Below are positions 3,946 through 7,236 of a DNA stretch of 64,000 bases, piece after piece (the first letter of the stretch is position 1; each line of letters begins with the position of its first letter). Location of the stretch: positions 1,187 to 65,186 of the forward strand of contig CAMORT010000005.1 of assembly GCA_946624065.1 (NCBI GenBank). The letters run 5' to 3'. The position numbers and the translations under genes were made by a program. The stretch is from an uncultured Bacteroidales bacterium. GTDB lineage: Bacteria; Bacteroidota; Bacteroidia; Bacteroidales; WCHB1-69. The notes beneath the pieces are model-generated. The model was not told the DNA's origin. It did not search any database and saw only the letters and a program-made list of their open reading frames with translations.

Positions 3946-3994
3946 AAAGTCTCTCGTCTCACATCTTACGTCTAAAATCCAAAATCCAAATTTT
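3946..3994. repeat. Degenerate heptamer tandem array (7 units) starting 1 nt after the S8 peptidase stop
   Basis: aaagtct ctcgtct cacatct tacgtct aaaatcc aaaatcc aaatttt. Confidence 0.6.
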
Positions 3995-3998
3995 CCCC

Positions 3999-4043: not shown

Positions 4044-5273
4044 ATGAAAAAATTATTATTCACCACAACACTTCTTGCCCTGCTGCTGATGTGCGGCGCG
4101 GCATGGGGACAGACCTACTCTTATCCCCCGTATGACTTCACTTCCGTGAACGCCGATGGTGACACGCTGTACTACCGCATCACCTCGTCGGCAACACCCT
4201 ATACGGTGGCCGTGACGCGCTGCCACGATTCCATATACCATACCTTGCCCCATCCTCATAATGCTTCCGAGGTCGGACAGCCCGGATTTGTCTATCCTGT
4301 ATATGACTACGACTCACTCATAACCATACCGTCAAGCGTGACCCATGACGGCATTGAATATACTGTCACGACCATCGACAACGAGGCGTTCTACGAACAG
4401 AATGGCATGCACACCGTCATACTCCCGTCCACGGTTACCATCATAGGCATGGCAGCATTTTATGAATCGACCGTTGAGCATATTGTAATGCCTAATGTGA
4501 CACACATTCTCTATGGTGCTTTTACCGATGCGCTTTTGTCTTCCGTTGATATTCCCGAATGTATTGTGGAGATTGGGGAGAAGGCTTTTGAGGGCAATAC
4601 TAGGCTCCGTCAGGTTGATATACCATCCTCCATCTCGGTTCTCAGAAGTTTCGTTTTTGCTTGTTGTAACAATCTATCTGTGGTGAACCTGCCCGAGCAT
4701 CTTGTCAGCATAGAAGATAATGCCTTTTATCGCTGCCCTCAACTAAAGAAAATCACAATCCCGTCAGAAGTGGCCTATATTGGTTGTGATGCATTCACAG
4801 ATGGATATGGTACCATTGATGGTAATTATGGAGCTAATGGATATCTGGACACTTTAATTATGAAATGTGAGACTCCACCTCAAAACCACATGCCTCAATC
4901 TTTCCAAACCAACAAAGCCCTTTTGGTTATTGTTCCCTGTCACACAGCGGAAACATACCAGACGGCCCCGATTTGGTCAACCTACTCCAATTTCACCTAC
5001 CATGAGGACTGCGTGGGAGTGGAGGATTATGAGAAGGAGAATGTGCAAATGTATCCGGTCCCTTGCCATGATGTGTTGCATGTCCGAGGCGAGAGCATAA
5101 GATTTTGCCGCATAGAGGTTTACGATATGTACGGAGCCCTTGTTTTGGCAGATGAGGCACAGGACACGGAAACGGCGCTGAATGTGTCAGGGCTGCCCGC
5201 CGGAGCGTATGCCGTTGTGGTCGTGGAAGACAACGGGCAAAGACAACATGTCCGGATGGTGACCAAACAATAG
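4044..5273 (+). CDS. BspA-type leucine-rich-repeat surface protein with T9SS C-terminal sorting domain
   Basis: Signal peptide. Repeated ~23-aa units (IPSSVT.I...AF..C..L..V.LP) typical of BspA-like LRRs. C-terminus VQMYPVPCHDVLHV...LPAGAYAVVVVEDNGQRQHVRMV. Confidence 0.75.
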   Translation: MKKLLFTTTLLALLLMCGAAWGQTYSYPPYDFTSVNADGDTLYYRITSSATPYTVAVTRCHDSIYHTLPHPHNASEVGQPGFVYPVYDYDSLITIPSSVTHDGIEYTVTTIDNEAFYEQNGMHTVILPSTVTIIGMAAFYESTVEHIVMPNVTHILYGAFTDALLSSVDIPECIVEIGEKAFEGNTRLRQVDIPSSISVLRSFVFACCNNLSVVNLPEHLVSIEDNAFYRCPQLKKITIPSEVAYIGCDAFTDGYGTIDGNYGANGYLDTLIMKCETPPQNHMPQSFQTNKALLVIVPCHTAETYQTAPIWSTYSNFTYHEDCVGVEDYEKENVQMYPVPCHDVLHVRGESIRFCRIEVYDMYGALVLADEAQDTETALNVSGLPAGAYAVVVVEDNGQRQHVRMVTKQ

Positions 5274-5313
5274 GATCTTCATCGGAACCACATTCCGAAA
5301 TTTTTGTCCATAC

Positions 5314-5343
5314 GGGAGCGGGAGGAATCTTGCTCCCTTTTTT
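5314..5343 (+). terminator. Intrinsic terminator after the LRR/T9SS gene
   Basis: GGGAGC-12 nt loop-GCTCCC followed by TTTTTTG. Confidence 0.6.
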
Positions 5344-5350
5344 GTGTGTT

Positions 5351-5434
5351 TAGTCGTTGGCCTTTGGCGATAGGGCCTTGGTTTCAAGTTTCAAGTCTGA
5401 ACTCTCAATTCCCCATTTCCCATTCCTCACCCAT
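5351..5434. repeat. Degenerate heptamer array (12 units); left copy of the direct repeat flanking the Rpn gene
   Basis: tagtcgt tggcctt tggcgat agggcct tggtttc aagtttc aagtctg aactctc aattccc catttcc cattcct cacccat. Confidence 0.8.
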
Positions 5435-5569
5435 ATCCTTTTTACTCCGAAAATCGCGTAACCGCCTTAACAACAGGTTGTTAAATTTACAACTTGTGTT
5501 TCTGTATGTTGCTGTTTTTCTGGTCGAAAAAAAATTCAGGATTCCCATTGCCCGAGCAAAACAATGTGT

Positions 5570-5577
5570 TATCTTTG
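5570..5577 (+). promoter_or_regulatory. -7 box TATCTTTG upstream of the Rpn gene
   Basis: 67 nt upstream of ATG 5644. Confidence 0.45.
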
Positions 5578-5643
5578 CTCCATCGCATGGCGGCTGAGCC
5601 AGTCGAAGCCGCCTGTTAACTGTAAAAACAAAATTTTATTATT

Positions 5644-6558
5644 ATGAAAACAAACAATGTGTTTATCAATCCGTTAACGGACTTTGGTTTCAAGCGTGTC
5701 TTTGCCAGCGAGGAGAACAAGGACATCCTCATCGCGTTTCTCAACGACTGCATCTCCGATCATGTGGGGGTTATCCGTGAAATCCGGTTCCTGCCCACTG
5801 AGCATATCGGACTTGCTGAGGCGGAGAAGAAACTGATTTTCGACATCTACTGCACCAACGAGCGAGGCCAGCGGTTCATCATCGAGATGCAGCGTGCGCG
5901 TCAGGACTACTTCGCCGACAGGGTGATCACATACATCAGCCGCATCATCAGCAATGAGGCCAGTCGCGGTGCGCGTCGGTACGACATCCCGCCGGTTTAT
6001 TCGTTCAATATCCTCGACTACAACGCCCCGGAGTTTATGGGCAGGGAGGAATATTTCTGGGCGGTGCACCTGAGGGACAACCAGAACCGAATTTTTTCGA
6101 AGAAAATCATCCTGTTTTTCATGGAATTGACTAAATTTGCAGCGCAGTTTCCGGATGAGAAGTCGCCGGCCTACAAGTGGGGCTACGCCCTGAAACACAT
6201 GTCAGGGATGTCACTGAAGGACATGCCCGAGGAGGCAGGAGAGTTCCGGAAGTTGTTTGAAGTTTGTCAAATGTCAAGACTCACAACTATGGAAAAAAAT
6301 GATTACGAGAAGAGCATCTTTGAATACGAGGATGTGCAGGACGCGTTGGAATGCATGCGCCGTCACTCATTACAGGAGGGATATGAGCAGGGGATGCAAC
6401 AAGGAGTACAACAAGGAATACTACAAGGAAGGGAGGAAGCGCTCCTCCAAACTGCGCGAAACTTCTTGAATTTAGGTGTTTCTCTCGCTGATGTGGCTAA
6501 GGCTACAGGCCTGAGCGAGGAGGAGATACTTGCGCACATAGGTGAAACTGGTGAATAG
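5644..6558 (+). CDS. Rpn family recombination-promoting nuclease / PD-(D/E)XK 'putative transposase'
   Basis: N-terminus NPLTDFGFKRVFASEENKDILIAFLNDCI and IFDIYCTNERGQRFIIEMQ (D..E.Q nuclease core). C-terminal QQG-rich helix plus LADVAKATGLSEEEI, typical of this family. Confidence 0.8.
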   Translation: MKTNNVFINPLTDFGFKRVFASEENKDILIAFLNDCISDHVGVIREIRFLPTEHIGLAEAEKKLIFDIYCTNERGQRFIIEMQRARQDYFADRVITYISRIISNEASRGARRYDIPPVYSFNILDYNAPEFMGREEYFWAVHLRDNQNRIFSKKIILFFMELTKFAAQFPDEKSPAYKWGYALKHMSGMSLKDMPEEAGEFRKLFEVCQMSRLTTMEKNDYEKSIFEYEDVQDALECMRRHSLQEGYEQGMQQGVQQGILQGREEALLQTARNFLNLGVSLADVAKATGLSEEEILAHIGETGE

Positions 6559-6660
6559 TCGTTGTCTCTTGGATGTTAGTCTTTGGCGATTTGGCCTTGG
6601 TTTCAGGTTTCAAGTTTCAAGTCTGAACTCTCAATTCCCCATTTCCCATTCCTAATTATC
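6556..6660. repeat. Degenerate heptamer array (15 units); right copy of the direct repeat, starting at the Rpn stop codon
   Basis: Positions 6612-6653 are identical to 5386-5427 (42 nt). ggccttggtttc is also shared. There is one extra heptad (aggtttc) and extra 5' units. Confidence 0.8.
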
Positions 6661-6663
6661 CTT

Positions 6664-7236
6664 TCACCCCATTTCCGATCTAACCAACGGAAATCTGGCC
6701 AGTGCCTTGTATTCCGGGCCTTCTTTGAGTAGAAAACTTTGATACAGAGTAAATTCCGTAATGGGAATCTGTTGGGTGAAGTCGGGTTGAGATTGCTGGA
6801 AACGCTCCCAGAATTTCTTCTTATCTACTACGGATTTCACTCTTCCCAAGGTAATATGTGGCACGAAATTGCCGTAGGCCGTTTCAAATCCCTGCTGTGT
6901 CAACTGGTTTTCCAAATGCTGAAAGCATTGCTTGAAAAAGAAGAATTCCTCAAACCCCAACCACAACACTTCAGGGTGATAATGGCTGCCAAACACGCCC
7001 AATTTGTTCAGTTCCAAATAAAACGGAGAGTGGGATTCGCAGGTCTGCCGTAAGGCATCCTTGATGGCGGGAATCTTGCTGTCGGGGGTGGCACCCAGAA
7101 AACGCAAGGTGAGGTGGCAGACTTCGTCTTTCACCCACACAATGTCATCGTGGCGCATTTCGTACTGGAATCGGGTACGCCACGCTTTGAACGCATCGCT
7201 CAACTCAACCTTGGTGGCGATGAAGAGCCGCTTCAT
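6664..7236 (-). CDS. thpR: RNA 2',3'-cyclic phosphodiesterase (2H family, LigT/ThpR)
   Basis: Two HxT/S motifs (HLTLRFLG and HITLGR) at the expected spacing. About 190 aa. The start overlaps the DPP-IV stop (TAATG). Confidence 0.8.
   Translation of the reverse strand: MKRLFIATKVELSDAFKAWRTRFQYEMRHDDIVWVKDEVCHLTLRFLGATPDSKIPAIKDALRQTCESHSPFYLELNKLGVFGSHYHPEVLWLGFEEFFFFKQCFQHLENQLTQQGFETAYGNFVPHITLGRVKSVVDKKKFWERFQQSQPDFTQQIPITEFTLYQSFLLKEGPEYKALARFPLVRSEMG

Follow-up and report, generated by a model that had tools for sequence, protein, structure and literature searches.

The 64,000-nt stretch of DNA analysed here, hereafter the window (contig CAMORT010000005.1 of the uncultured rumen Bacteroidales assembly GCA_946624065.1), contains an rpn gene, rpnL, which lies with its leader between two heptamer arrays, L on the left and R on the right, in the space between a gene for a leucine-rich repeat (LRR) protein and thpR. 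The arrays are not transposon ends; they are recombining members of a dispersed array family, and they bracket a single-gene cassette as the repeats of its gain and loss. The features of the locus are the following.

5351..5434, + strand: left heptamer array L, passing from TTGG-type heptads to TTTCAAG heptads and then to C/A-rich heptads, the last being CACCCATATCC
6556..6663, + strand: right heptamer array R, with its first base on the rpn stop codon and its last at the thpR stop codon
5380..5427, + strand: 48-nt identical block, left copy (equal to 6606-6653)
6606..6653, + strand: 48-nt identical block, right copy (equal to 5380-5427)
5435..6574, + strand: Rpn cassette as common to unrelated contexts, made of leader, coding sequence (CDS) and about 19 nt of cassette-linked array start (TAGTCGTTGTCTCTTGGAT)
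5644..6558, + strand: rpnL CDS, 304 aa, with an N-terminal PD-(D/E)XK nuclease domain and a C-terminal RpnS-like helical domain
4044..5273, + strand: BspA-type LRR protein with a type IX secretion system (T9SS) C-terminal sorting domain, left neighbour of the cassette (Pfam LRR_5, Por_Secre_tail)
6664..7236, - strand: thpR (2'-5' RNA ligase / LigT family), right neighbour, convergent with rpn (Pfam LigT_PEase, 2_5_RNA_ligase2)

L and R are direct repeats of degenerate period 7 with the same block order, both opening with TAGTCGTTG (at 5351 and 6556), and the TAG at 6556-6558, which is the rpn stop codon, lies within R. A repeat search returned them as a 78-nt direct-repeat family of 83% ungapped identity (5350-5427 vs 6576-6653), and a single 7-nt gap, corresponding to an extra heptad in R, lengthens the repeat to about 87-91 nt in a gapped alignment. 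An earlier reading of the sequence alone (the sequence-only reading) had given 42 nt for the identical block between the arrays; the block is real, and blastn-short and a longest-common-substring script extend it to 48 nt. The same reading was right in that the arrays enclose solely the promoter region and CDS of Rpn (a 209-nt non-coding leader and 304 codons) and that R begins on the Rpn stop codon. Against a background of 1560 crude gene calls from the whole 2.43-Mb assembly (G000, a metagenome-assembled genome of 109 contigs), the flank-to-flank local alignment score of rpn, 48, takes rank 3, with a score of at least 20 reached by just 9/1560 genes, and the similarity of the L and R flanks is far beyond chance.

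The L/R array family occupies four loci only in the assembly, namely L, R, C2:862-916 and C90:5113-5138. Period-7 arrays as a class are strongly over-represented in the genome (87 to 136, vs 1 to 44 for periods 5, 8 and 10) and are held by 8.9% of the intergenic regions; the window arrays share the marks of such tandem arrays, having period 7, an intergenic position and the excess over other periods. They have no significant RNA fold (z-scores of -0.7 to +1.0) and no Rfam match, which rules them out as RNA structures or known RNA families. A further heptamer array (GTCTCxC, then AAAATCC) is found at 3948-3995 of the window, directly after the stop codon of an S8 peptidase gene and upstream of the LRR gene.

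The ends of the cassette are sharp. When 5435-6558 was compared by blastn with 13 close metagenome loci, every alignment began at cassette position 1-7 and stopped at 1102-1124, regardless of the flanking sequence, and the same ends recur in at least eight contexts. The left end, ATCC..TTTTCTCCGAAAT, is kept amid different flanks, and on the other side conservation across contexts reaches about 19 nt beyond the stop codon (consensus TAG-CYRTTGKYCTYTGG). Since the C/A-rich end of the upstream array is also conserved in several pairs, for example L069 and G011:C11, the travelling unit has array sequence at both ends. No terminal inverted repeats are present, with zero inverted-repeat pairs in 5200-6800 and cassette ends that are unrelated to each other.

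A clean presence/absence pair with both flanks conserved was found in a sister lineage, between the LRR gene and a gene for a UbiE-type methyltransferase. The empty allele (L180) has an M4 peptidase gene, the LRR gene, a 150-nt spacer with one array, and the methyltransferase gene, with Rpn absent, while the filled allele (L181, the same record as L064; also L179) has LRR, array, Rpn, array and methyltransferase; the identical LRR protein, P0010, is encoded in both. The left side (L180 2625-4350 vs L181 2625-4350) is 99.8% identical and the right side (L180 4315-6022 vs L181 5526-7233) 95.2% identical. A 36-nt part of the single array (CGTTGGCCTTTGGCGATAGGGCCTTGGTTTCAAGTT) stands on both sides of the 1211-nt indel, the breakpoints being inside the array, and the perfect part of this shared segment is TTGGCGATAGGGCCTTG, of 17 nt (24 nt with one mismatch). 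Compared with the empty allele, the extra DNA comprises the C/A-rich half array, the cassette, the T/G-rich array start and a second copy of the shared segment. The left array of the filled allele thus has the 5' part of the target and the 3' part of the element, and the right array the 5' part of the element and the 3' part of the target, a hybrid structure that is expected from a crossover between an element array and a site array, and that the reverse deletion would consume. Another empty allele, L185 with protein P0008, differs in its single-nucleotide polymorphisms (SNPs) and has an LRR side 99.5% identical to that of a strain with the LRR, Rpn, thpR arrangement, and the C2 locus of the window genome is a further Rpn-less methyltransferase site. 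The same flanks therefore occur both filled (L181, L064, L179) and empty (L180, L185) with breakpoints in common sequence, as in repeat-mediated indels. Precise gain or loss of the cassette through its flanking arrays, which had been proposed from the window alone, is borne out by these sister-lineage alleles; excision at the exact locus of the window was not found.

For the thpR side, 20 contigs encoding the identical ThpR protein were compared. The window arrangement is present in five of them at 99.5-99.8% identity, and at least 12/20 lack Rpn, having thpR, then one array, then the promoter of a DUF4230 gene, an arrangement nearer to that of the sister species, where purE adjoins thpR. This single array is composed of the 5' part of L, the core and an R-like 3' end, and it matches L perfectly across 72 nt and R allele 2 across 75 nt. 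In strains L163, L170, L171 and L182, R consists of TAGCCGTTGTCTCTTGGAT followed by the complete array of the Rpn-less strains; R is a hybrid, with a cassette-linked start and then the thpR-associated array. Because a single array stands beside the identical ThpR in strains without Rpn, the thpR-side array predates the cassette. The sequence-only reading had the cassette inserted into, or duplicated along with, a pre-existing array, and the greater age of the thpR-side array agrees with a pre-existing array; the long block is a variable conversion tract and not a fixed insertion scar. The left neighbour of the Rpn-less thpR allele is the DUF4230 gene, not the LRR gene, and the whole left flank differs. 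In the window genome the DUF4230 promoter is on contig C90, followed by the first 26 nt of the thpR array and then by unrelated heptads, and C90 is possibly the reciprocal product of an exchange within this 26-nt module. A "perfect reciprocal set" that used L066 was dropped, the adjoining winged-helix gene being a 5-copy family whose L066 copy is not clearly the C90 orthologue, and the sister species gave no informative empty site at thpR, since in G011 thpR is followed by a hairpin and then purE, where synteny breaks.

The arrays around rpn are polymorphic among strains. The longest identical block between L and R measures 72 nt in L163 and 48 nt in the window, against 19 nt in L162, L170, L171 and L182. 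The 19-nt strains carry L allele 2, with about nine substitutions within 20 nt (GTCTAAATTCCTCATTCCTGATTTCCC), which resembles the array of the empty LRR-methyltransferase allele, and the L of the window is allele 1, with an R/thpR-type core. L163 has a private SNP, GGAC, in both L and R. These patchy and concerted differences argue for gene conversion between neighbouring repeats, not for duplication followed by point mutation. They also differ from the short target-site duplication of fixed length that defines an insertion sequence (IS), the repeats being of 36-90 nt with an identical block of 19-72 nt and hybrid copies. The cassette and its arrays were found in these contexts (left neighbour, cassette, right neighbour):

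LRR, cassette present, thpR
LRR, cassette present, methyltransferase
LRR, cassette absent, methyltransferase
LRR, cassette present, BatA
helicase, cassette present, BatA
helicase, cassette present, methyltransferase
T9SS paralog, cassette absent, methyltransferase
DUF4230, cassette absent, thpR
DUF4230, cassette absent, small winged helix-turn-helix (wHTH) gene

Filled and empty alleles alike have the LRR protein, unchanged or with 1-2 residue differences, on their left. The main alleles each come from several independent assemblies, and the LRR-BatA (L068) and helicase-methyltransferase (L178) contexts from one contig each. The cassettes of L068, L066 and L178 are 5'/3' hybrids of rpn paralogs, showing that crossovers fall inside rpn too.

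The assembly has three rpn paralogs, namely the window copy (contig C5), one on C74 (91% nt identity) and one on C39 (51% protein identity), and so does not hold the several near-identical copies per genome (here 100%, 91% nt and 51% protein) by which an autonomous IS is recognised. Across the genus, the copy number of PDDEXK_2 genes ranges from 0 to 14. Array presence beside rpn was scored by a heptad-periodicity threshold. In the rpn subfamily most like the window gene, a right-side array is present in 5/8 contexts, vs 5.2% of genes genome-wide, and a left-side array in 3-4/9 contexts, vs 1.9% of genes genome-wide; genus-wide, the criterion is passed by 5/33 upstream and 6/34 downstream rpn flanks, above the same backgrounds of 1.9% and 5.2%. 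Locus-specific flanking direct repeats were found at 5/22 genus loci (the window, L028, L035, L037 and L042). That of L035 is a common hairpin of the repetitive extragenic palindromic (REP) type, that of L037 is a member of a repeat family dispersed in about 10 copies through its genome, and in that of L042 (genome G006) the array part is dispersed and 45 nt are unique to the locus. Empty sites of L042 exist in at least eight species, with spacers too diverged to place the duplication. The C74 empty site was uninformative, as the helicase and BatA genes are on separate contigs in all relatives, and the "solo 5' leader" remnants in G011 proved to be merely contig ends inside rpn copies. A second leader copy is found downstream of rpn at L017 and L021. 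In L021 (G005:C91) the duplicated leader/promoter lies about 200-460 nt downstream of the rpn stop and is predicted to drive an unrelated coiled-coil gene, and in L017 (G003:C30) it lies about 140-330 nt after the stop codon and precedes a truncated rpn remnant.

Here it is proposed that the rpn gene is probably a passive single-gene cassette, gained, lost and shuffled by recombination between dispersed heptamer arrays, not by transposition. The cassette would be embedded in modular intergenic heptamer arrays, with a C/A-rich half upstream of the leader and a T/G-rich start after the stop codon, and these array-bearing ends would give it homology to many intergenic sites. Homologous recombination of array with array, either RecA-dependent or RecA-independent through short homology, could then integrate or delete the cassette together with one array-equivalent, leaving or consuming an array direct repeat; it could also swap the neighbours of the cassette, and gene conversion could homogenise neighbouring arrays. 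The R of the window would be a recombinant of the array start belonging to the cassette and the array that precedes thpR in Rpn-less strains, and the 48-nt perfect block may be a recent conversion tract from R into L. From the alleles we infer that the recombination is driven by homology, and in the same way the direction of the individual events. Rpn itself would be cargo here and not the transposase, and nothing indicates transposase activity. The published survey describes the gain and loss of individual rpn genes with neither terminal inverted repeats nor target-site duplications, suggests recombination or hitch-hiking, and considers the genes probably not transposases (PMC10400941); the statement of the sequence-only reading that no transposon ends are defined for Rpn agrees with it, neither ends nor target-site duplications being known (PMC10400941).

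The flanks of the C74 and C39 copies are low-complexity sequence passing from T/G-rich to C/A-rich, unmatched to each other, with a flank score of about 10; they are weakly heptad-periodic and fail the 19-of-28 lag-7 criterion. The expectation that the paralogs too would sit between arrays fails for these two copies and, with the genus pass rates of 5/33 and 6/34, is only partly true overall. Several observations weigh against recombination through the arrays as the route. An allele with LRR, one array and thpR, which the sequence-only reading predicted as the empty site, did not appear in about 35 strain contigs, nor did a circle or deletion junction; the Rpn-less thpR allele has DUF4230 on its left. 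The filled/empty pair belongs to a sister lineage, in which the cassette shows 93% identity. On the right flank its two alleles agree at only 95%, so that the cassette may have come with the flank by ordinary allelic replacement. The shared segment of 17-24 nt is short for RecA-dependent recombination. A repeat-cassette-repeat geometry that abuts both ends fits a long target duplication equally, and the locus-unique part of the L042 repeat is unexplained by a simple array crossover. Some of the recombinant contexts known from single contigs could be chimeric across the 91% identical paralogs, and the reciprocal reading of C90 is not secure, its adjoining winged-helix gene belonging to a multi-copy family.

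One alternative is that Rpn mobilises itself, with nuclease breaks in or near the arrays and staggered cleavage or template switching giving a long and variable array target duplication. In the window and in G006 (L042) the repeats do lie directly against the two cassette ends, with the stop codon within the repeat; flanking repeats at 5/22 genus loci stand against a background of 9/1560 genes; the L042 repeat is partly locus-unique; and the segment shared in the L180/L181 indel is just 17-24 nt. For RpnA, moreover, a stimulation of recombination that does not depend on RecA is reported, with template switching primed by the cleavage products (PMC5350276), although RpnA has little sequence specificity in vitro (PMC5350276) and target-site duplications are absent in the rpn gene survey (PMC10400941). 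L and R, however, differ by patches and indels that follow other arrays, and were not identical at birth. The genus count is diluted by the common REP-type hairpin of L035 and the dispersed repeat of L037 (about 10 copies), the close paralog on C74 has no matching flanks, and terminal inverted repeats are absent in 5200-6800. To our knowledge, there is no autonomous PD-(D/E)XK transposase. Such insertion is held to be unlikely. Equally doubtful is a bolder form of it, in which the arrays would be the "ends" of Rpn genes, Rpn would provoke RecA-independent template-switch recombination there, and cassettes would excise and land in spacers with related arrays; if true, defence genes would have landing pads throughout the genome in the arrays, and Rpn would be a nuclease that mobilises itself with no transposase. 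A simpler form, in which Rpn makes the arrays, is ruled out by arrays of the same heptads in genus members without PDDEXK_2: G010 has zero PF12784 matches and at least seven array-core matches, and G002 has one distant copy and at least five. Rpn is thus not needed to make or keep the arrays.

It is also improbable, though conceivable, that the locus is static, with independent arrays of a ubiquitous spacer family made similar by local gene conversion and strain differences that are ordinary rearrangement or allelic replacement. In favour of this, 8.9% of intergenic regions hold arrays, and the EamA transporter gene at C25:30724-31605 of G000, a housekeeping gene without mobility signs, is flanked by similar arrays with a flank score of 23, so that arrays of the same family can bracket a housekeeping gene; those around it are GGTGAAT/GGGGTGA heptamer arrays on both sides (C25:30623-31676). 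The change of the identical block from 19 to 72 nt by strain, the poor synteny in the genus (helicase and BatA genes on separate contigs in relatives) and the difference of the Rpn-less thpR allele across its whole left flank would also fit. A static locus does not account for the same sharp cassette ends in at least eight contexts, for the clean presence/absence pair with both flanks conserved, for the copy number of 0 to 14 between genus species, or for the rpn copies that break assemblies at contig ends.

That the repeats, or the filled, empty and recombinant alleles, arose by metagenome mis-assembly across arrays and rpn paralogs is very improbable. In its favour, G000 is a 109-contig assembly, many short contigs end within arrays or the cassette, and LRR-BatA (L068) and helicase-methyltransferase (L178) are on single contigs, whereas the window arrangement recurs at 99.5-99.8% identity in at least five independent assemblies, the Rpn-less thpR allele in at least 12 contigs and the empty LRR-methyltransferase allele in two assemblies with differing SNPs, and a shared segment of 17-24 nt, at or below the shortest usual assembler k-mers, makes collapse unlikely.

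The product of rpnL matches Pfam PF12784 (PDDEXK_2) with E 2.6e-51 (175 bits, cut-off 27.4) and TIGR01784 (Rpn family) with 109.5 bits (cut-off 52.1), and its residues 261-297 align to the crystal structure of RpnA_S from Escherichia coli (7TH0) with E 0.005. To judge by these matches, the gene is a bona fide Rpn of the Rpn/YhgA-type PD-(D/E)XK kind, as it had been read before. PF27070 (HTH_Rpn_C) gave a weak match in products of identical length from other strain contigs, and a look-up of the exact window protein returned zero records. D13, D66 and E81-x-Q83 (in NPLTDFGF, IFDIYC and FIIEMQ) are spaced, by inspection and with no formal pairwise alignment, like D11, D63 and E82-x-Q84 of RpnA; mutation of RpnA residues D11, D63, E82 or Q84 abolishes activity (PMC5350276). 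Two further features lie within the CDS.

6385..6432, + strand: four copies of a four-residue repeat, [EQ]QG[MVIR], encoded by a 12-nt DNA repeat (Tandem Repeats Finder row 6397-6430)
6355..6558, + strand: candidate intragenic antitoxin RpnS, 67 aa, starting at the in-frame M238

M238 sits 10 residues before the four-residue repeats, and in RpnL/RpnS defence genes the variable four-residue repeats start 8-20 residues after the RpnS start (PMC10400941). Among rpn copies with 85-99% identity elsewhere, the number of repeats ranges from 1 to 5, and the gene provides a clear illustration, from the Bacteroidales, of the hypervariable helix of RpnS. From homology, the gene is predicted to encode a toxic PD-(D/E)XK endonuclease together with an internal antitoxin, like the phage-defence Rpn genes of E. 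coli.

The leader contains the following features.

5440..5452, + strand: conserved left-end motif TTTTACTCCGAAA (family consensus TTTTCTCCGAAAT)
5467..5484, + strand: perfect palindrome TTAACAAC-AG-GTTGTTAA, a candidate operator
5570..5577, + strand: putative Bacteroidetes-type -7 promoter box TAnnTTTG (TATCTTTG), read from the sequence
5589..5613, + strand: hairpin GGCGGCT...AGCCGCC of the 5' untranslated region (UTR) (fold of 5575-5646: -17.1 kcal/mol, z = -1.7)

In paralogs with as little as about 40% protein identity, the left-end motif still lies about 205 nt ahead of the ATG; a loose form of the pattern has five matches in the genome, one of them at an rpn gene (that of the window), and inspection by eye shows variants of the motif at the C74 and C39 copies. 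The palindrome TTAACAACAGGTTGTTAA is exact at the C5 and C39 copies and has one right-arm mismatch at C74, and inverted repeats of the TTAAC...GTTAA type recur in other rpn paralogs of the genus. TAnnTTTG is the Bacteroidetes -7 promoter consensus, and the box is kept as TACCTTTG or TATCTTTG in the paralogs. The C74 copy has a different, longer hairpin at the matching place.

On the left of the cassette, an intrinsic terminator of the LRR gene (5314..5343, + strand, from a terminator scan) lies within a terminator module of about 60 nt. This module and the array start recur after other T9SS genes, the window segment 5294-5424 having a copy that is 93% identical at G000 C2:812-941, and a terminator-only copy of the module (CCGAAATTTTTGTCCATACGGGAGCGGGAGGAATCTTGCTCCCTTTTTT) is at C12:27619-27667, which suggests that units of 3' UTR and array are copied between genes. 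The gene upstream of the LRR gene varies (L180, L171 and L182 vs L170 vs the window), being an M4 peptidase, an SLT/LysM protein, an S8 peptidase, or a MarR-like regulator with small open reading frames; as this neighbour differs by strain, the LRR gene is itself at a variable junction. The small winged-helix gene family (about 75 aa, ending KKQGLIRHVGSNKTGGYEA) has five copies (C90:5190-5389, C33:27832-28044, C12:33234-33410, C26:14603-14722 and C10:983-1141), and in at least two of them (C90, C10) the 3' end abuts a heptamer array.

The system closest to the window Rpn is that of E. coli RpnA-E and RpnL-RpnS (Kingston et al. 2017, PMC5350276; Zhong et al. 2023, PMC10400941), which is alike in the N-terminal PD-(D/E)XK domain with its D...D...E-x-Q motif, in the C-terminal helical domain (7TH0) with the hypervariable four-residue repeat and a Met 10 residues upstream, and in single-gene gain and loss, variable copy number and the absence of terminal inverted repeats. 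The E. coli proteins belong to the PF04754 branch and the window Rpn to the PF12784/TIGR01784 branch, and the window gene differs in its conserved 209-nt leader with left-end motif and palindrome. In contrast with the published rpn survey, which has no flanking repeats (PMC10400941), it is flanked by arrays, and the long direct repeats hold the gain/loss breakpoints. Toxicity, antitoxin and defence are known for E. coli Rpn, to which the window Rpn is likened by its sequence.

The arrays themselves resemble the heptanucleotide arrays of other bacteria (long simple-sequence repeats; the short tandemly repeated repetitive (STRR) sequences of heterocystous cyanobacteria) in their period of 7, fast evolution, strictly intergenic position, ordered blocks, frequent start on a stop codon and absence of an RNA fold. 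They differ from these in being substrates of crossover and gene conversion that bracket a defence gene, which is a consequence and not necessarily a function.

Gain and loss of cargo driven by homology is known from Campbell-type integration and excision without a site-specific recombinase, from direct-repeat deletion and from the minimal mobile elements of Neisseria. The rpn cassette resembles these in that two repeat copies stand in the filled allele and a single hybrid copy in the empty one, breakpoints fall anywhere in the common sequence, and the unit has no recombinase gene. Its repeats, unlike theirs, are short (17-72 nt identical) degenerate heptamer arrays and not genes or IS copies, and the process is known here from alleles and not from circles.

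REPtrons, in which REP sequences accompany a REP-associated tyrosine transposase (RAYT), are also alike in having a nuclease-family gene flanked by short repeats that populate intergenic regions. In the rpn case, however, repeats are not confined to genomes with the nuclease gene, arrays of the same heptads occurring in G010 without PDDEXK_2, and the arrays are tandem and not hairpins. The assembly has a real RAYT, an IS200/RAYT-type Y1 transposase gene at C73:4558-5019 (minus strand), with flanking direct repeats of about 170 nt and REP-like hairpins (G000 C73:4039-5443); a palindrome, TTAACAATCAATTGTTAA, of the same type as that of the rpn leader lies just upstream of it.

IS1549 of Mycobacterium smegmatis is an IS with unusually long target duplications. 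The window cassette is similar to this type in the long, variable direct repeats around a single-gene unit of about 1 kb, and differs in having neither inverted ends nor a DDE transposase and in repeat copies that are hybrid, not identical duplications.

Rpn defence genes, heptamer arrays and repeat-mediated indels are each known; their combination at rpn is new. In thousands of genomes, rpn genes bear the label of putative transposases, and their single-gene gain and loss without recognisable ends was left unexplained as to its route in the one systematic study (PMC10400941). Sharp ends, filled and empty alleles and breakpoints inside the arrays provide a concrete and testable route of mobility, namely recombination through portable array homology. 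For the heptamer spacers of rumen Bacteroidales, this gives a first demonstrable consequence, as substrates of crossover and gene conversion that reshuffle gene neighbourhoods. If it were true that the RecA-independent recombination of Rpn drives this mobility, it would join the views of Rpn as a promoter of recombination and as a defence toxin.

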